A stretch of DNA of 44,834 bases from a virus (taxonomy: Duplodnaviria > Caudoviricetes), in the IMG/VR virus record IMGVR_UViG_3300032234_001101, positions 1 through 44,834 of that record; one strand, given 5' to 3'. Made by a program: the position numbers and the translations under genes. The first letter of the stretch is position 1. Each line of letters begins with the position of its first letter. Below the pieces are notes generated by a model. The model saw only the letters and a list, made by a program, of their open reading frames with translations, ran no database searches and was not told the DNA's origin. Positions 37,296 through 43,912 of the stretch are shown here, piece by piece.

Positions 37296-38648
37296 ATGCC
37301 CGATACGGTGACGGTCAGCGAGACCCAGGGTGCAAGGTACACCTGGGCGTCGGCTGGCTTTACATGGTCGAGCGCCAGCGCCGGAAAGAACTGGACCACG
37401 GCCTATCCTGCTGTCTACAACGTAGCAGTGGCTGTGACGCTGGCCTTCGTTGAGGCTACCGGTAGGCAGTGGACCAAGCGATCGAGTGAAACGCTGGCCC
37501 TTGCAGAAAAGCTGGTCAAGCAATTGACCCTGCGCGAATCAGAAGCTATCGGGTTTGGGGAAACCTACTCAGACCTGATCGCCTATGTACTTCGTTGGGT
37601 AGAAACGATGTCCTTTGGCGAGGCTGTCGGGAAAGCCAGTCGCAAGGAGGTGCGGGAGTCCTTCCAGGCCTCCGACTACCTAACCCGAGTGCTTACAAAG
37701 ACCACTGCGGAGAGCCTGGCCTGGGGGGATGTGATTCGCAAAGGAGGCGTCAAGCGCCTGGCCGAAAGTCTGCCGATTTCTGAGGCGCCCCAACGCGGGG
37801 TCACCAAGAAAACCTTTGAAGCCTTTGGGCTGGGTGACGACTTGGATCGGCAGATGACCAAGCGCATCTCGGAGGCCGTCGCGTTTGCCGAGACCTATAC
37901 CGACCTGATCGCTTTCATCTTGCGCATCAGCGAAAGTCTGGTGGTTAGCGACCTGGGCGCCAAGCAGGTACGCAAACCCTTGTCTGAGGCCTTTGGTACA
38001 ACCGACAAGGCTGCAAGGCAGACGGTCAAGCGCGTCGCTGAGGCGATCGCGATAGGCGAGGCGCTGGGCCGCACGGTGGCCTACCGCCGAAATCTGGCTG
38101 AGGGCTTTGCGGTGTCTGATGCGCTGCGCAAAGCGGTAAGGCTGACTGCGCAGGAAGCATTGCTACTTGCCGAGCAGTACCGCAGACATGCCAACGGCGT
38201 GATCAGCGACATGATCGTTGGCAGTACGGAGATCACCGAACAGGACTTCGTTGCCATCGTCGAGGCCGGTCACCCGCCCGGGTACACCGACTTCCGGGAT
38301 TTCATTCAGGGCGACTACACCTACCGTCGCGCGCTATTCCGGGCCATCTTGAATTCGCGCAATTCTGACCGCGGCTATATCGACGGTCTGCGCGTCACCG
38401 TGGATGTGCCTGACATCTTCGATCGCAGCACCGCACAGATCACCGATGCGGTCGCGGGCGCGGTGATCAATTTCACCCGCAGCTTCCGCGTGCCACCAGA
38501 GGTGACCATGACCCATAAGGGGGGCACCGCCGTGGCCATCCCTCGGCTGCTCGGCGCAGTCACCACGACTGGCTTCACCGCCGTCCTCGAAAACAGTTCC
38601 GGCACGCGCGTGACCGGCTCCTTCACCTGGATTGCACAGGGGTACTAG
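37296..38648 (+). CDS. Putative tail fibre/shaft protein with 18-20-aa repeats (450 aa)
   Basis: About 13 repeats such as AESLAWGDVIRKGGVKRL. C-terminal FTRSFRVPPEV...VTTTGFT...WIAQGY is typical of fibre beta-domains. Confidence 0.7.
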   Translation: MPDTVTVSETQGARYTWASAGFTWSSASAGKNWTTAYPAVYNVAVAVTLAFVEATGRQWTKRSSETLALAEKLVKQLTLRESEAIGFGETYSDLIAYVLRWVETMSFGEAVGKASRKEVRESFQASDYLTRVLTKTTAESLAWGDVIRKGGVKRLAESLPISEAPQRGVTKKTFEAFGLGDDLDRQMTKRISEAVAFAETYTDLIAFILRISESLVVSDLGAKQVRKPLSEAFGTTDKAARQTVKRVAEAIAIGEALGRTVAYRRNLAEGFAVSDALRKAVRLTAQEALLLAEQYRRHANGVISDMIVGSTEITEQDFVAIVEAGHPPGYTDFRDFIQGDYTYRRALFRAILNSRNSDRGYIDGLRVTVDVPDIFDRSTAQITDAVAGAVINFTRSFRVPPEVTMTHKGGTAVAIPRLLGAVTTTGFTAVLENSSGTRVTGSFTWIAQGY

Positions 38649-39707
38649 ATGCAGAACTTCACCGACATACCGTCGTCCAGAACGCTGTCGGATTCTCTGA
38701 TCGAGATTCTGAACAACGATAAGACGGCCATTTCGTGCAACAGCGGCACCACCTTCCCGACGACCAACCTTCAGATCGGGATGCTGTGCTACCGCACGGA
38801 CCAGTTGAAGCTCTACCAGTTGATCGGTACGAATCCCGACAACTGGCGTTTCATCATGGATTTGGCGAGCGGCATCGATACGCAGTTCGCCGCCAAGCTC
38901 AATGCCGCGAGCTACACGGCGGCTGATGTCCTGGCGAAGCTGCTGACTGTGGATGGTGCAGGTACTGGACTGGATGCCGACCTGCTCGATGGCCAACATG
39001 CGAGCGCATTTGCCTCTAGCACGCACAACCACAACGCTGCCTATCTCGGCATCACCGCCAAGGCCGCCGACTCCGACAAGCTCGATGGCTATGACTCCAC
39101 AGCCTTTGTGAGGTCGGTAAATGGTAATACCCCTGATGCCAACGGGAACGCAACCGTTGACTTGTCAAATCGCCTGGTGAAGACAGGCGACACCATGACT
39201 GGCAATCTCTACATGGGAAGTGGGTCCTTAGTCTATTCCAGCCAGTCCGGCTCGGCCGATAACGCCCGCAATACCGGTTATCGGATGAGCGATGGCCAAG
39301 ACATTGGCGAGATGGGGCGCAGCAACCAGTACTACGACGACCTTGCCAGCAATTGCAATGGTGTGTTGCCCACCGGAAATTGTTCAGGTAATGCCAACTG
39401 GACGCTTCCAAATCTGAACTGGTGGACCTGGGGTCTGGGATTCAACTACTGCGCCAACATGGGTCAGTACGACGGCGCTGGTGGGACCAGCTACGGCAAC
39501 TACGCCATCCCCAACTCTGGATACAACTACGACGGTTACTACCTCGCGCAAGACGAGATCGGAGGCGGCGAGTACCACCGTTGGTACCGTGCGTGCAACT
39601 GCAACTGCAATTGCGGGGGGTACAGCAACTGCAACTGCGGGACCACGGCCTTCAACTGCCGAACCAACTGCAATTGCAATTGCAACTGCGCCTGCTGTGG
39701 CTGGTGA
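38649..39707 (+). CDS. Tail fibre-like protein with Cys/Asn-repeat C-terminus (352 aa)
   Basis: Fibre motifs GLDADLLDGQHASAF, ADSDKLDGYDSTAF, VRSVNGNTPDANGN, KTGDTMTGNL. Ends CNCNCNCGGYSNCNCGTTAFNCRTNCNCNCNCACCGW. Confidence 0.8.
   Translation: MQNFTDIPSSRTLSDSLIEILNNDKTAISCNSGTTFPTTNLQIGMLCYRTDQLKLYQLIGTNPDNWRFIMDLASGIDTQFAAKLNAASYTAADVLAKLLTVDGAGTGLDADLLDGQHASAFASSTHNHNAAYLGITAKAADSDKLDGYDSTAFVRSVNGNTPDANGNATVDLSNRLVKTGDTMTGNLYMGSGSLVYSSQSGSADNARNTGYRMSDGQDIGEMGRSNQYYDDLASNCNGVLPTGNCSGNANWTLPNLNWWTWGLGFNYCANMGQYDGAGGTSYGNYAIPNSGYNYDGYYLAQDEIGGGEYHRWYRACNCNCNCGGYSNCNCGTTAFNCRTNCNCNCNCACCGW
39594..39704 (+). repeat. In-frame TGCAAY hexamer repeats encoding (Cys-Asn)n
   Basis: Directly visible: tgcaactgcaactgcaattgc and aactgcaattgcaattgcaactgc. 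Confidence 0.95.
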
Positions 39708-39721
39708 TGGAGGGGGACCGC

Positions 39722-40534
39722 ATGAAGATTTACATCAGCCGATCGCGCTTTATGAGCCAGGCCCAGGCCTATGCCATCAAGCTTTACATCGATGCAAAGA
39801 AGCAGGAAGTGCAGGCCGTCATCGGCACCCAGTTGCGCCGGGTTGAAGATCAGCCAGCGGCGTTCAGCGTCGATGGTGTCGACTACTTTGATATCTCGAG
39901 CATGGTGATCCGGGTGTCCGAGTTGCGCGCAAGTCGCAACTGGTCCGACAGGCAGGTCTTTAGCTGCGCCTATGACTGGAAGCTGGGTCGATGGCTTGCG
40001 CCCTTTCCCCAATACGTCTACTCCCGCCCATTTCGGTTCACAGCCTATGAGATGAACCAGATGTTCAAGGTCGGTCAGGAGAATTCTCTGATCGCGCTCA
40101 ATGTGCCATTCGCCGATAGCACCTTCGACGATTGCTTTTTGACTGTGAACCTGCATCCCACCCTGGGTGGGATCGTCGTCGAGGGCGACGCCTCAGACAT
40201 TCTGAATCTGGGCTACGACACCCACGACGAGACCCGGCAGATGGTGTTTCCCTCGGTGCACGTGAGTGCGCCCCTGGTTGCCCAGGTGGGCCAGCCCCTT
40301 ACCTTTTCGCTGCAGGTGGTCGACGGTGCAGGCCATCCCCTGCCGCATGACGCCGAGATCCATTTGGAAGTTGTCAATGGTTACTGCCCCAAGCCGCGGG
40401 TTCACACCCACCAGGGGGCGGCCCAGGCGGTGGTGTTGCCCCTGGGGCTGGAGGCGGGTGACGTCGTGCGGCTCAAGGCAGGCTTCAAGTTCTTCCCTGC
40501 GCTGGGTGAGGCGCAGGTGACGCTCACGCAGTAG
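39722..40534 (+). CDS. Hypothetical protein with probable C-terminal Ig-like domain (270 aa)
   Basis: GGAGG RBS before ATG 39722 (alternative start 39707). C-terminal GQPLTFSLQVVDGAGHPL beta-sandwich pattern. Confidence 0.7.
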   Translation: MKIYISRSRFMSQAQAYAIKLYIDAKKQEVQAVIGTQLRRVEDQPAAFSVDGVDYFDISSMVIRVSELRASRNWSDRQVFSCAYDWKLGRWLAPFPQYVYSRPFRFTAYEMNQMFKVGQENSLIALNVPFADSTFDDCFLTVNLHPTLGGIVVEGDASDILNLGYDTHDETRQMVFPSVHVSAPLVAQVGQPLTFSLQVVDGAGHPLPHDAEIHLEVVNGYCPKPRVHTHQGAAQAVVLPLGLEAGDVVRLKAGFKFFPALGEAQVTLTQ

Positions 40535-40543
40535 GGGGGCGGC

Positions 40544-41122
40544 ATGGAGGTCCATGACAACCTTTTTGATCCGCAGGAGTTGGAGCGTCTACGCGCCTGG
40601 CTTCTGGGGCAGTCCCTGATCTACGGTTGGCGCGCGCACAACCAGGCGCCGGGGTCGTTCTGGCATCGTAATTTCGTGTTGCCAGGTTCTCGACCGCACC
40701 ACTACGACCAGAAGGCCTGGCATCCGGAGATGACCTTCGAGCGCCTGCTTGCCGAGGAGTCGCCGCTCTCGCAGATCGCCCAGAAGGTTCAGGCGCGGTT
40801 CTTCGGCAACGCCGAGATCACCCGGGTCTGGATGAATGTGCAGGCCTTTGGCGACGAGTCGGCCTTCCACCGAGACTTCCCCGTGGATTTCGCTGCGACG
40901 GCCCGCTCGGTGATTCTCTACCCCGTCCCCCGATGGGAGCGGGACTGGGGCGGCGACTTCGTGGTTTTGGGGGATGACGGGGAGATCAAGGGCGCCGCCC
41001 TGGTCAAACCCGGGCGGGTGGTTGCCATCCCCGGTTGCTCACTGCATGCGGTTCGGCCCATCTCCCGCTACTGCAATGAATTGCGCTTGGCGCTGGTCTT
41101 TGGATCCGAGGAGGTCACATGA
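40544..41122 (+). CDS. 2OG-Fe(II) oxygenase, prolyl-hydroxylase-like (192 aa)
   Basis: HxD (FHRD), WERDWGG, KPGRVV, distal His (LHAVRP), 2OG-binding Arg (RLALVF). Confidence 0.88.
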   Translation: MEVHDNLFDPQELERLRAWLLGQSLIYGWRAHNQAPGSFWHRNFVLPGSRPHHYDQKAWHPEMTFERLLAEESPLSQIAQKVQARFFGNAEITRVWMNVQAFGDESAFHRDFPVDFAATARSVILYPVPRWERDWGGDFVVLGDDGEIKGAALVKPGRVVAIPGCSLHAVRPISRYCNELRLALVFGSEEVT

Positions 41123-41871
41123 TCGAAATGTTCTGGCCCACTCCTGTGCTGCGAGACGAGTCCCCTTGGACTGCCGCCGAGTTAGCCGCCCTGCGGGATT
41201 TCGCGGCCGAGCGCTTTGCCCACCACAAAGCCTACCCGCAGGAGCATGGCCTGCCCGAAGTGGATACGCGGCTGCGGTTTCAACACAATCTCTTTCACCC
41301 CCGGCATGAGGAACTGGCTCCCGAGGTCTGGGGGCGGTTCAAGTTCTGGGTAGACGATCTGTACCGCGGCTATCTGCGCGAGGCTTATGGCGTGCGCAAT
41401 GCGAACGACTTGCATATCCAAGCGCGCTGTACCCCGGCACTCAATGAGCCGGGGATGCGGGCTCAGCCTCACTACCACCACACCTGCGACCATGTCCTTT
41501 GCCTTTACCTCGATTGCGGGTATGGGCGCAGTCCCCCTTCCCAGAGGGACTGGGCTGTCGGTGACGGCGAACTGATCTTGCAGGATCCCCGCCCTATGGC
41601 GGGGTTTCCTTTTTGGGAAAAGGTTCGCTACATCGAGACCCGGCCAGGCCTGGTCGTGCTGCACCCCTCACGAGTCTGGCACGAGACCAACCCCTTTAAT
41701 GCTCAGGGCAACCGCGTCCTGCTGGTGGTGACCCTGCGGGTCGCCTCCCACAACTACTGCGAGCTCTACACGGAGCTGGGAAGCCCTGGGCGCCTGAATC
41801 GGCAGCTTGATCCGCAGCCTGATTCCCAATTCGACCCACGTCCAACCTTGAATTCGACGGAGAGACCATGA
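41119..41871 (+). CDS. Putative 2OG-Fe(II) oxygenase, TIGR02466-like (250 aa)
   Basis: MFWPTPV start, PHYH, LYL, GELILQDPRP, PGLVVLHPSRVWHETNP, NRVLLV. Confidence 0.82.
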   Translation: MIEMFWPTPVLRDESPWTAAELAALRDFAAERFAHHKAYPQEHGLPEVDTRLRFQHNLFHPRHEELAPEVWGRFKFWVDDLYRGYLREAYGVRNANDLHIQARCTPALNEPGMRAQPHYHHTCDHVLCLYLDCGYGRSPPSQRDWAVGDGELILQDPRPMAGFPFWEKVRYIETRPGLVVLHPSRVWHETNPFNAQGNRVLLVVTLRVASHNYCELYTELGSPGRLNRQLDPQPDSQFDPRPTLNSTERP

Positions 41872-42101
41872 CTGCGACTTCCCATTCCTCGAACCCGATC
41901 GGCCTGAACACCCGCGCGGGCTATAGAGCCAAGGCCGCGCGCCTGAGCAACACCCAGGTGCAGATGGTGGTGGATGTTGAGCCACTGAATGGAAATCCTG
42001 GCTCGCGCCATACCTTCAATTTGACGATGCTGCCCGGTCAGGATGTGGCTGAGCTTTGTCGTACCGCCTATCCCATTGCATTTGAAGGAGGTGAGCTTTG
42101 A
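41868..42101 (+). CDS. Small hypothetical protein (77 aa)
   Basis: GGAGAG RBS and 4-bp overlaps with both neighbours. Confidence 0.7.
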   Translation: MTATSHSSNPIGLNTRAGYRAKAARLSNTQVQMVVDVEPLNGNPGSRHTFNLTMLPGQDVAELCRTAYPIAFEGGEL

Positions 42102-43546
42102 AATTCACACTCACTCTTAACGGTCAGCGCGGATTCCAGCGACAAGCCATTTATGACCCAGAAGATTCCAGCCTGATTTGGGCCGACAGCGGGGAACCGT
42201 TACCTCTGCCGCAGGCGTTTCCCCGGCAAGAATTGGATTGGGAGCCGTTCTGGCACCTCCATCATCCATCTAACCCTGCTGGCAAGTCCCGAGACATCAA
42301 ACACTTGAAGCTCCAACTTGGACTCAAGTGCAATTACGCCTGCCAATATTGCTCGCAGGCCCATCAGCCGCATGACCTCGACGGGCACCCCGATGATGTC
42401 CTGCCTTTCATGGAGCAACTCCAGGGGTGGTTTGCCGGAGGAGCCGACGGCCAAGGGAGTGGCGTCAAGATCGAATTCTGGGGTGGCGAGCCATTCGTTT
42501 ACTGGAAGCTGTTGCGTCCTCTGGGGGAGGCAGTCAAAGCCCGGTATCCACATGCGCAACTTTCCATTGTGACCAATGGCTCGCTCTTTGACGACGAAAA
42601 GCTTGCCTGGGTTGAGGCGCTGGACATTGGGATCGGTCTTTCTCACGATGGCCCTGCTCAATCGTTCCGTGGCCCTGATCCGTTGGACGATCCTGAGCGA
42701 CTGGCACACATCAAACGCTGGGTTTCACGCCGTATGCCGATCGACAGGATGAGTTTCAACACGGTTTTGCATCGCCATAACCAGTCACTCAAAGCGGTAC
42801 GGAAGTTCTTCTCCGACAAGCTTGACTTGCCGGTTCAGGCCGTTGTGCTGGCCACGGAAGAGGTGATGCTCCCCTATGACACCTCAGGTCAGGCTCTTTC
42901 TCTTCAAGGTGCCGACCATGTTCGGTATCTGCACCAGCTCTTTTGGGAGTTGGCTACGGGTTCAGCTATGGCGGTGGGAACGCTGCGCGACAAGGTCGAT
43001 GAGTTTTTGCGTTCTCAGGGGCAACGCCGTCCGTTGGCTGCGCTGGGCCAAAAGTGTGGCATGGACCGCTCAGACTCGATTGCGGTAGACATGAAGGGCA
43101 ACGTCACGACCTGCCAAAACATGAGCGCCTCCACTGAACACAAAATCGGGCAGGTGGATTCATTCGACGAAATCAGCCTGGATACGGCTTACCACTTCAG
43201 TACGCGAAGCGAATGTCCTCGATGCCCGGTGGTGCAACTGTGCAAGGGGGCATGCCTATTTTTGGAGGGTGACTTCTGGAGCGGGGCCTGCGACAACTCG
43301 TTTACGCACAACCTGGCCGTACTCTCTGCGGCTCTTTACTATCAGACGCAGGGACTAGTCCTCACAAGGGTTGAGGCACCGGCGATTCGTGCCGAAGGCA
43401 TCACCGGGGTAGATGTCATCAATCTTGGGTTTGTGGAGCGTGGCGGGGACTTTTCTGCTCTCAGTGAAGCAGTAATGCCAACCATCTATCAGCCGTCGGC
43501 TCTTCAAGAGCGAAAGCCTTTCCCTATCGCCGTTGTCGCCGGATAA
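42098..43546 (+). CDS. Radical SAM enzyme with SPASM domain (482 aa)
   Basis: CNYACQYC (CX3CX2C), FWGGEP, VTNG, LSHDG. SPASM cysteines KCG...TTCQ...CPRCPVVQLCKGAC...C. AAGGAGG RBS, TTG start. Confidence 0.95.
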   Translation: MKFTLTLNGQRGFQRQAIYDPEDSSLIWADSGEPLPLPQAFPRQELDWEPFWHLHHPSNPAGKSRDIKHLKLQLGLKCNYACQYCSQAHQPHDLDGHPDDVLPFMEQLQGWFAGGADGQGSGVKIEFWGGEPFVYWKLLRPLGEAVKARYPHAQLSIVTNGSLFDDEKLAWVEALDIGIGLSHDGPAQSFRGPDPLDDPERLAHIKRWVSRRMPIDRMSFNTVLHRHNQSLKAVRKFFSDKLDLPVQAVVLATEEVMLPYDTSGQALSLQGADHVRYLHQLFWELATGSAMAVGTLRDKVDEFLRSQGQRRPLAALGQKCGMDRSDSIAVDMKGNVTTCQNMSASTEHKIGQVDSFDEISLDTAYHFSTRSECPRCPVVQLCKGACLFLEGDFWSGACDNSFTHNLAVLSAALYYQTQGLVLTRVEAPAIRAEGITGVDVINLGFVERGGDFSALSEAVMPTIYQPSALQERKPFPIAVVAG

Positions 43547-43573
43547 GCGGCGCCTCGTTCAATCTGTACCGTC

Positions 43574-43605
43574 GCCCGCCTGGCTCACGCCAGAGTGGGC
43601 TTTTT
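43574..43605 (+). terminator. Terminator-like hairpin closing the fibre/rSAM cassette
   Basis: GCCCGCCTGGC-TCAC-GCCAGAGTGGGC followed by TTTTT. Confidence 0.65.
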
Positions 43606-43621
43606 CTATTTGGAGAAGACC

Positions 43622-43912
43622 ATGACCGATGACACCCAGAACCCCTCGGTCCTCAGCATGCGCCAGGAGGACCTTGACGAGCTATTGACTCGTGCAGCCG
43701 AACGTGGAGCTGAGCGATGTCTCGCGCACCTTGGTCTCGAAAACGGGAGCGCAGCGCGGGATATCAGGGAGCTTCGCGATCTTCTCGAGGCGTGGAGGGA
43801 TGCCCGTCGCACTGCTTGGCGGACCACGATCAAGGTAGTGACCACTGCAATCCTGGCTATGTTGCTTGTAGGCGCTGCCATCAAGCTCAAGTTGATGGGA
43901 GGTGCCCAATGA
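43622..43912 (+). CDS. DUF6127-like membrane protein (lysis module, 96 aa)
   Basis: AAERGAERCLAHLGL...DIRELRDLLEAWR and one C-terminal TM helix. GGAG RBS. Confidence 0.7.
   Translation: MTDDTQNPSVLSMRQEDLDELLTRAAERGAERCLAHLGLENGSAARDIRELRDLLEAWRDARRTAWRTTIKVVTTAILAMLLVGAAIKLKLMGGAQ

Follow-up and report, generated by a model that had tools for sequence, protein, structure and literature searches.

Introduction

Phage tail-fibre tips can be encoded together with helper modules, such as the Tfa chaperones, the gp37/gp38 adhesin and the S74 chaperones. Here we describe a different set of helpers in a 44,834-nucleotide stretch of viral DNA (IMG/VR record IMGVR_UViG_3300032234_001101; hereafter the window), in which six genes, A to F, begin with a tail fibre whose tip carries a ladder of Asn-Cys repeats and end with a radical S-adenosylmethionine (SAM) enzyme of the SPASM type that we predict to modify this tip.

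The closest described enzymes form thioethers from Cys residues. In CteB and CrpC, the seven cysteines of the SPASM domain leave, or are predicted to leave, the AuxI site open for a substrate thiol (PMC6231123, PMC13692751). Precedent for a six-membered thioether between a Cys and the residue before it (i-1) comes from the enteropeptins (PMC12395415), and NxxcB joins Cys to the C-beta of Asn while tolerating Ala, Gln and Asp as acceptor (PMC9389541). For the window, we propose that the fibre tip and genes B to F are one exchanged block in which F likely modifies Asn-Cys pairs, most probably by joining the Cys sulfur to a carbon of the preceding Asn in a small thioether ring, a reading to which we assign a probability of about 0.6.

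Results

The radical SAM enzyme and the Asn-Cys ladder are found together

As described in the original prediction, which was made from the letters of the window, the six genes are co-oriented between the tail and lysis modules. All lie on the + strand, with gaps of 14 bp (A/B) and 9 bp (B/C) followed by 4-bp overlaps. Gene A (38649-39707, + strand) encodes a tail-fibre protein of 352 amino acids (aa), the predicted substrate, which divides into a conserved N-terminal anchor (aa 1-186) and an exchangeable tip (aa 187-352). Its proposed fibre-like nature and Asn-Cys end are borne out by a match to tail-fibre PHROGs over aa 72-252 (E 5e-10), by its place after the tail-tip genes, by a constant anchor with an exchanged tip and by the composition of the tip, where 12 of the 16 Cys in the last 166 residues follow Asn. 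The protein ends in ...CNCNCNCGGYSNCNCGTTAFNCRTNCNCNCNCACCGW. On the + strand the ladders span 39597-39695, with NCNCNC at 39597-39614, NCNC at 39627-39638, NC at 39654-39659 and NCNCNCNC at 39666-39689, the last followed by AC; isolated Asn-Cys pairs lie at 39351 and 39378, and a terminal Cys-Cys-Gly, which co-varies with oxygenase C, at 39693-39701. The pattern (AAYTGY)x3 occurs three times in the window, each time within A, and in 0/100 shuffles. By sequence the tip has no PDB or Pfam match (PDB hits were at chance level, E 0.26 or worse), and resemblances to gp37/gp34 trimer regions in an atlas comparison are no more than leads.

To count from the enzyme, three collections were searched with an alignment of 66 F sequences, the 80 best loci of each being taken (out of 603, 181 and 544 confirmed candidates), and 16 loci were added from an earlier search. 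The enzyme is present in 252 loci (the window included, some contigs twice), 163 of which have 4 kb upstream. A C(xC)n on the same strand counted as a ladder if it held two or more Asn/Asp-Cys. Such a ladder lies upstream of the enzyme in 155 of the 163 loci, compared with 0/144 downstream, 1/126 at 4-7.5 kb upstream and 1/489 shuffles; the reverse strand gives 25 ladders, probably through antisense reading of the ladder itself. After clustering at 70% identity, 34 of 38 clusters are ladder-positive.

Counting from the ladder, an (Asn-Cys)4 DNA pattern found 121 viral stretches, of which 80 were analysed. A ladder was called terminal if it lay within 12 residues of the stop of an open reading frame (ORF) of at least 60 aa with 3 kb downstream, and 38 qualify. 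A same-strand radical SAM enzyme of the family accompanies 37 of these 38 (32 strong) and 0/29 of the non-terminal or non-ORF matches, with 13 more too short to judge; some contigs of this set also belong to the enzyme-seeded one. The placement of the enzyme beside a gene for a Cys-rich predicted substrate, and the reciprocal expectation that fibres with such tails come with the enzyme, therefore both hold in nearly all cases.

Two neutral anchors were also used. Of 78 loci with the 450-aa tail gene that precedes A, all 44 with 5 kb downstream carry the enzyme, and the strict ladder rule is satisfied in 43. At the downstream anchor DUF6127, where 61 of 80 loci are long enough, 7 have both enzyme and ladder, 53 neither, none a ladder only and one the enzyme only, this last being an apparently chimeric contig. 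In that contig (L001/L021/L455), a helicase gene is joined directly to the latter half of D some 570 bp before the enzyme, probably through an assembly chimera or a large deletion.

Cultured phages carry the arrangement too. Achromobacter phage JWF has a fibre-ladder-Hint protein, an accessory gene, a radical SAM enzyme (38% identical), a terminator and lysis genes in this order, and Ralstonia phage RSP15 has a side fibre, a B homologue and a radical SAM enzyme. The homologue from Campylobacter CPt10 (29% across one quarter of F) is annotated with no adjoining fibre gene, its DNA not having been scanned for ladders. On two bacterial contigs (L125, L134), relatives of F at 43-44% have no upstream ladder, and one lies behind a type I secretion locus; both contigs stop about 1 kb past the enzyme. 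A search for ladders in the rest of the two bacterial genomes, both of them incomplete, gave one chance match, in a conjugation gene, in one genome and none in the other.

The conserved unit is an adjacent Asn-Cys pair

The repeats had been read as NxxC motifs, the substrate pattern of NxxcB, and this reading did not survive. We considered isolated Cys, defined as having no other Cys within four residues. Across 18 tip clusters Asn occupies -1 in 19 of 24 cases (background 11.5%) and -3 in 2/24. Across 10 tip clusters from a set with a different anchor gene, some of them of families already in the first set, the counts are 21/22 and 2/22. Over both sets the background is 11.5-13%, and Asn at -3 is at background level. 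As controls, Asn at -1 was found for 0/49 and 0/18 Cys in the N-terminal portions of these ladder proteins, 0/33 in 14 structural proteins of the window, 20/269 in B and 38/765 in F. Runs of Cys open with Asn-Cys in 24/27, and they end at a stop, Gly or Cys. By these counts, what is conserved is Asn directly before Cys and not an NxxC spacing, and NCNC fits NxxC because this spacing is a by-product of an Asn-Cys repeat. A preference for Asn-Cys that recurs in unrelated tips is what would be expected of an enzyme recognition motif.

The spacer residues of the ladders are N (68%), A (19%) and D (9%). The Cys and Asn codons are mixed (TGC 491/TGT 276, AAC 230/AAT 162), so selection acts on the protein. 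A microsatellite origin of the ladder was rejected given the use of both synonymous codons and the C-terminal, in-frame position.

The ladder is a portable fibre end

The idea of a precursor-like core fused to a fibre agrees with what is seen in relatives, where the ladder closes fibre proteins with many unrelated kinds of N-terminus, including lambda-type, T7-like with collagen and T4-like proteins. Among the matches listed, 20 of 41 ladder-protein representatives match a tail-category PHROG, mostly tail fibres. Small ladder proteins of 90-130 aa that follow an S74-capped fibre also occur. Ladders sit on separate 87-130-aa proteins in L051:5417-6977, L149:4795-7387 and L064/L070/L071, behind an S74-capped fibre in L051 and L149, in a layout like the gp37/gp38-type arrangement, and T4-like contigs carry three ladder-protein paralogues in tandem. 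Tips of the L056 type have Ser-Tyr-Cys repeats ahead of the ladder. In large phages (L019, which is phage RP12, and L264, L272, L315, L331) the ladder protein is followed by three more distant radical SAM genes; it is 67-82 aa long in the latter four.

In 13 of 139 distinct ladder proteins the chain extends more than 100 residues past the ladder, and Hint models match all three long-extension proteins scanned as well as JWF gp028. The Hint domain directly follows the ladder in L017:6676-8127 (phage JWF gp028), L132, L135, L199 and L054. Self-cleavage by a domain in this position would leave the ladder as the new C-terminus.

The fibre tip and genes B to F are exchanged as a block

Sharp boundaries of an exchanged tip are the usual signature of receptor-binding module exchange. 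Among the loci of the upstream anchor, the fibre N-terminus is nearly constant and the tips are divergent. Of 44 loci, 25 lose DNA homology to the window inside A at position 39157 or 39208, while 18 that are more distant lose it at about 38816 and one at 39638; it is regained at 43573-43575 in 15 of the 19 loci that have downstream homology. In pairwise comparison of 47 dereplicated loci, the identity of F correlates with that of the tip at a Spearman coefficient of 0.86, but with those of the fibre N-terminus and the upstream gene at just 0.34 and 0.27; the fibre N-terminus itself follows the upstream anchor (0.82). As delimited by DNA homology, 39209-43573 (+ strand) is a bounded block, made up of the fibre tip and B to F, that is swapped among sister phages as a unit.

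At its right edge lies a terminator-like hairpin with a U tract (43574-43607, + strand). The terminator predicted here indeed starts exactly at 43574 (-21.5 kcal/mol, z -3.3, with the U tract after it), while a simple terminator scan of the window by itself gave 5 against 7.0 expected, i.e. no excess over chance. Comparison with L105 and L112 gives a synonymous divergence (dS) of 1.3-2.1 for the tip (39207-39704) and 0.1-0.4 for B-E. This suggests that another crossover separated tip and B among phages with one tip type. In runs from lakes and wastewater, contig depth is reduced from about 39245 to 43670; an exchanged block would account for the drop, which was not counted as evidence.

Enzyme F resembles CteB

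Gene F (42098-43546, + strand, TTG start) encodes 482 aa. It had been called a radical SAM/SPASM enzyme, and its CX3CX2C core, partial TIM barrel and seven-Cys SPASM domain place it in that superfamily. The core motif (residues 78-85; C78, C82, C85) and the seven SPASM cysteines (C320, C339, C373, C376, C382, C386, C398) make ten Cys that are invariant in 66 homologues, and the SPASM model TIGR04085 is matched at 36 bits (cut-off 27). An AlphaFold2 model of F (pLDDT 89.6) has CteB as its closest structure (Foldseek E 1.6e-11; VIA Z 22.6, root-mean-square deviation 4.4, 368 residues aligned over 1-420), followed by ChlB, anSME and TigE (Z 20.3, 19.8 and 18.6). The alignment runs from residue 1 of the model, to CteB chain residue 3. 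The modelled N-terminus has strands at 3-8, 14-20 and 25-28 and no helices before residue 86, and this predicted three-strand sheet occupies the position of the peptide-recognition domain (RRE) of CteB without the RRE helices. From its sequence and modelled fold, F is a CteB-like, seven-Cys SPASM enzyme that falls in no curated maturase family.

The accessory genes vary among loci

The original prediction treated all six genes as one system that would also hydroxylate the fibre. Both oxygenases are indeed present, but neither is core: among the 163 enzyme loci, B occurs in 131, a D-type oxygenase in 83, E in 38 and a C-type oxygenase in 28. Likewise E, counted as part of the system, is present here yet nearly confined to the clade of the window's enzyme.

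Gene B (39722-40534, + strand) encodes the core accessory protein of 270 aa; an alternative ATG at 39707, overlapping the stop of A, would give 275 aa. The B family comprises 1330 clusters at 50% identity. Domain and profile searches assigned no family to B or E, B having no Pfam family, and by sequence B gave only chance hits in the PDB (E 0.26 or worse). Its C-terminus looks Ig-like, with Big_1/invasin D3 look-alikes (score 0.8) that are a lead only. No fusion of B to a fibre or to F was found among proteins of 561-2000 aa, which is weak evidence. Loci without B (L083, L140, L143, L158, L017:8114-8836) have another accessory protein with a common, helical-looking C-terminus, possibly a fibre chaperone.

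Gene C (40544-41122, + strand, 192 aa) and gene D (41119-41871, + strand, 250 aa, PF13759 type) are optional. Both match models of 2-oxoglutarate (2OG)-Fe(II) oxygenases with conserved iron triads, His-x-Asp...His in C (H109-x-D111, H168, with R181 also conserved) and His-x-His...His in D (H118-x-H120, H188). D exceeds the PF13759 cut-off (28.8/27), and C stays under the Pfam and FlmC cut-offs (24.5/27 and 43.5/240). The two cannot be aligned to each other, which makes them unrelated oxygenases and upholds the claim that they are distinct.

The presence of C follows the terminal Cys-Cys-Gly of the tip. A first count over 197 dereplicated loci found C in 28 of 36 Cys-Cys-Gly loci and in 2 of 161 others; anchoring on the cysteine motif of F raised this to 35/36 against 2/161, seven of the first-count misses being due to a boundary rule. 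Both counts are post hoc, and the pooled test also includes loci of a second upstream anchor. Taken by clade (47 clades, 50 clade-state units), 4 units have both, 43 neither, 2 C only and 1 the motif only (p 3e-4, units not fully independent), and within the clade of the window 14 loci have both and 16 neither.

Gene E (41868-42101, + strand) encodes a conserved 77-aa protein. The idea that it is a split-off RRE or a copy of the N-terminus of F was rejected, since profile comparison gave no match (hhalign probability 0.3). What stands between B and F is variable and can include a second, shorter radical SAM enzyme, as in L030:6962-7984, L056, L035, L048, L161 and L171. The interval between B and the enzyme in L057:3456-5878 holds two fatty-acid-desaturase-like genes (His-box, by eye) and a further probable oxygenase, and L080:6815-7855 and L140:6878-8002 have a 340-370-aa protein before the enzyme that is ATP-grasp-like by eye, with no Pfam hit.

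Surroundings of the locus

As a whole, the window is a provirus. It encodes an integrase, and the six genes stand between lambda-like head and tail genes on the upstream side and lysis genes on the downstream side. The 450-aa tail gene upstream of A (37296-38648) has internal repeats and a weak C-terminal H-type lectin match (E 7e-4, under the cut-off), and its homologues range from about 396 to 450 aa. The ratio of nonsynonymous to synonymous divergence (dN/dS) of A to F, E included, is 0.01-0.27 in all computable pairs with four relatives; it could not be computed for F in two of the four and for B and E in one. Where computable, A to F are by this measure under purifying selection.

Discussion

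Proposed mechanism

We propose that F would bind three [4Fe-4S] clusters and that its seven-Cys SPASM domain would leave one open iron at AuxI to hold the substrate thiol, whereupon a 5'-deoxyadenosyl radical would abstract H from Asn(i-1). Attack at C-alpha would give a six-membered thiomorpholinone, as in the enteropeptins, and attack at C-beta a seven-membered ring, with a mass change of -2 Da per site; Ala or Asp may replace Asn within ladders. The optional 2OG oxygenases would tailor particular tips further, with the terminal Cys-Cys-Gly as the probable site of C, and B probably binds the tip or F as a chaperone or adaptor. There would be no leader removal and no export, the modified sequence staying on the fibre, and in some relatives the Hint domain behind the ladder would excise itself. 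The likely benefit would be a receptor-binding end that is rigid, oxidation-proof or chemically distinct.

Alternative explanations

F might instead convert the same Asn-Cys pairs to 5-thiooxazoles in the manner of SbtM, a SPASM radical SAM enzyme that turns Cys into thiooxazole with loss of four H (PMC11002830). Each Cys would then lose 4 Da, a metal-binding or aromatic tip could result, and F does have a weak match to the geopeptide maturase model (5e-10). A thiooxazole ring would include the backbone of the preceding residue, a geometry that fits the -1 preference. However, the structure of F and most of its top family matches point to thioether formers (CteB, PapB, QhpD), and a strict preference for the Asn side chain would be no obvious need of backbone-carbonyl chemistry; we consider thiooxazoles unlikely. 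Fibres are usually trimers, and thioethers of longer range, either NxxC-type to Asn(i-3) or from chain to chain, could staple the presumed trimer. The spacers of the ladder recall the acceptor tolerance of NxxcB (PMC9389541), but isolated Cys show no excess of Asn at -3 (2/24, 2/22); we hold both kinds of link to be quite improbable.

The ladder could also be purely structural, a spine that binds metal or disulphides and is comparable to the iron sites (His-x-His) in T4 gp37, with F loading metal, making a cofactor or being a linked passenger. Fibre needles that contain metal are known, Cys at alternate positions fit well in a beta-strand core, and co-exchange is explicable by linkage alone. 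A spine would leave unexplained why Asn precedes lone Cys in unrelated tips, why the enzyme pairs with ladders across unrelated phage types and fibre folds, collagen-like ones included, and why oxygenase C pairs with Cys-Cys-Gly, and we rate it at similarly poor odds. The case for other radical chemistry on Asn, be it epimerisation of every other residue as in polytheonamide and epipeptides or C-C rings as made by TvgB and TigE, with Cys just docking on AuxI, draws on TigE being the best PDB sequence match of F (E 1.5e-17), on EpeE/YydG being among its matches and on TvgB acting on a repeat peptide beside a 2OG enzyme (PMC11002830). Such chemistry is made very improbable by the lack of a further invariant Cys that could donate H (at position 222, 40/66 homologues have Cys and F has Thr) and by the Z of 13 for EpeE against 22.6 for CteB.

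Thioether formation at Asn-Cys remains our preferred reading, and several observations weigh against it. F scores under every curated maturase cut-off (PapB 56/340, QhpD-type 50/453, SCIFF 35.5/425, TIGR04463 25.9/525) and is just 17-18% identical to CteB; its close structural neighbours ChlB, anSME and TigE perform other chemistry, and the seven-Cys motif is also a general SPASM signature (PMC6231123). The homology boundaries of the block show linkage, not catalysis, physical linkage also yields co-exchange of tip and F, and linkage may contribute to the pairing of C with Cys-Cys-Gly. The tip is strongly conserved within its own type (dN/dS 0.02-0.04), and receptor binding is suggested by its position. 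Eight of the 163 enzyme loci fail the upstream ladder rule: two are one apparently chimeric contig, one has its ladder at -5.4 kb, two have variant ladders and three are ladder-less bacterial contigs that end within about 1 kb downstream of the enzyme. The side fibre of RSP15 ends in merely a short NCQC, and because the searches share loci and the loci are related to one another, the raw counts exaggerate how independent the cases are.

Implications

Taken further, there is close to an even chance that phages of a large class not yet described make their receptor-binding tips by the chemistry of peptides that are ribosomally synthesised and then modified post-translationally (RiPPs), with a radical SAM family ringing every Asn-Cys, oxygenases tailoring the product (C on Cys-Cys-Gly) and the block serving as a host-range cassette. 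The B-family clusters by themselves convey the breadth of such a class. If this is true, host specificity would depend on post-translational chemistry and the mature adsorption tip would not be defined by the fibre sequence alone, in many phages of different tail types, which would explain why fibres grafted without their enzymes might fail. It would also have no precedent in the searched literature as radical-SAM (RiPP-type) maturation of a structural protein of the virion; no radical SAM modification of a phage fibre was found there, most subscription journals lying outside it, and in the portions available, PMC11898562 and PMC12801897 just list radical SAM genes. The findings point to a new enzyme family for the cyclisation of adjacent residues, and the Asn-Cys motif, the limits of the block and the pairing of oxygenase with Cys-Cys-Gly allow precise and cheap biochemical tests.

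Comparison with known systems

Like the Tfa, gp37/gp38 and S74 modules, the locus has a conserved anchor, an exchangeable tip and linked downstream helpers; unlike them, its helpers include a radical SAM enzyme and 2OG oxygenases, along with B, for which no family was detected. It also departs from a classical RiPP layout, in that the predicted substrate is a 352-aa fibre and no protease or transporter is found among the six genes or the intervening genes examined in relatives.

Among the thioether-forming enzymes, CteB (the SCIFF ranthisynthase; PDB 5WGG/5WHY), PapB and QhpD have the same SPASM cysteine pattern as F, and CteB is its best structural match over residues 1-420, the N-terminal region included. 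F differs from this group in its low identity, in missing the curated cut-offs, in a predicted N-terminus of three strands without RRE helices and in having a virion fibre as its predicted substrate. The Asn(-1) signal suggests the geometry of the enteropeptin sactipeptides, where a radical-SAM-type bond from sulfur to alpha-carbon closes a six-membered thiomorpholine between Cys and the preceding residue; there, however, a single site with N-methylornithine as acceptor lies in a small antibacterial peptide (PMC12395415), and the likeness is one of chemistry. The streptococcal RaS-RiPP pair NxxcB/NxxcA makes a Cys-to-Asn beta-thioether with an Ala/Gln/Asp tolerance resembling the ladder spacers, but acts on a small peptide precursor (PMC9389541), and its NxxC spacing, with Asn at -3, is not what is conserved in the fibre tips.

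The nearest parallel in layout is CrpC/CrpA of Methanococcus voltae (TIGR04463), likewise a seven-Cys SPASM radical SAM enzyme beside a large protein with a C-terminal Cys-rich region, whose product is, as we expect for A, a modified protein and not a released peptide (PMC13692751). CrpA has 17-residue repeats with C-X-X-Q/D, the Cys standing before its acceptor, whereas in A the Asn directly precedes the Cys; F reaches 25.9 bits on the CrpC family model against a cut-off of 525, and the main text of PMC13692751 contains none of the words phage, viral and tail. By analogy, then, the mechanism would be of the CrpC/QhpD type of protein maturation, carried out by an enzyme outside every named family and in a biological setting that would be new.

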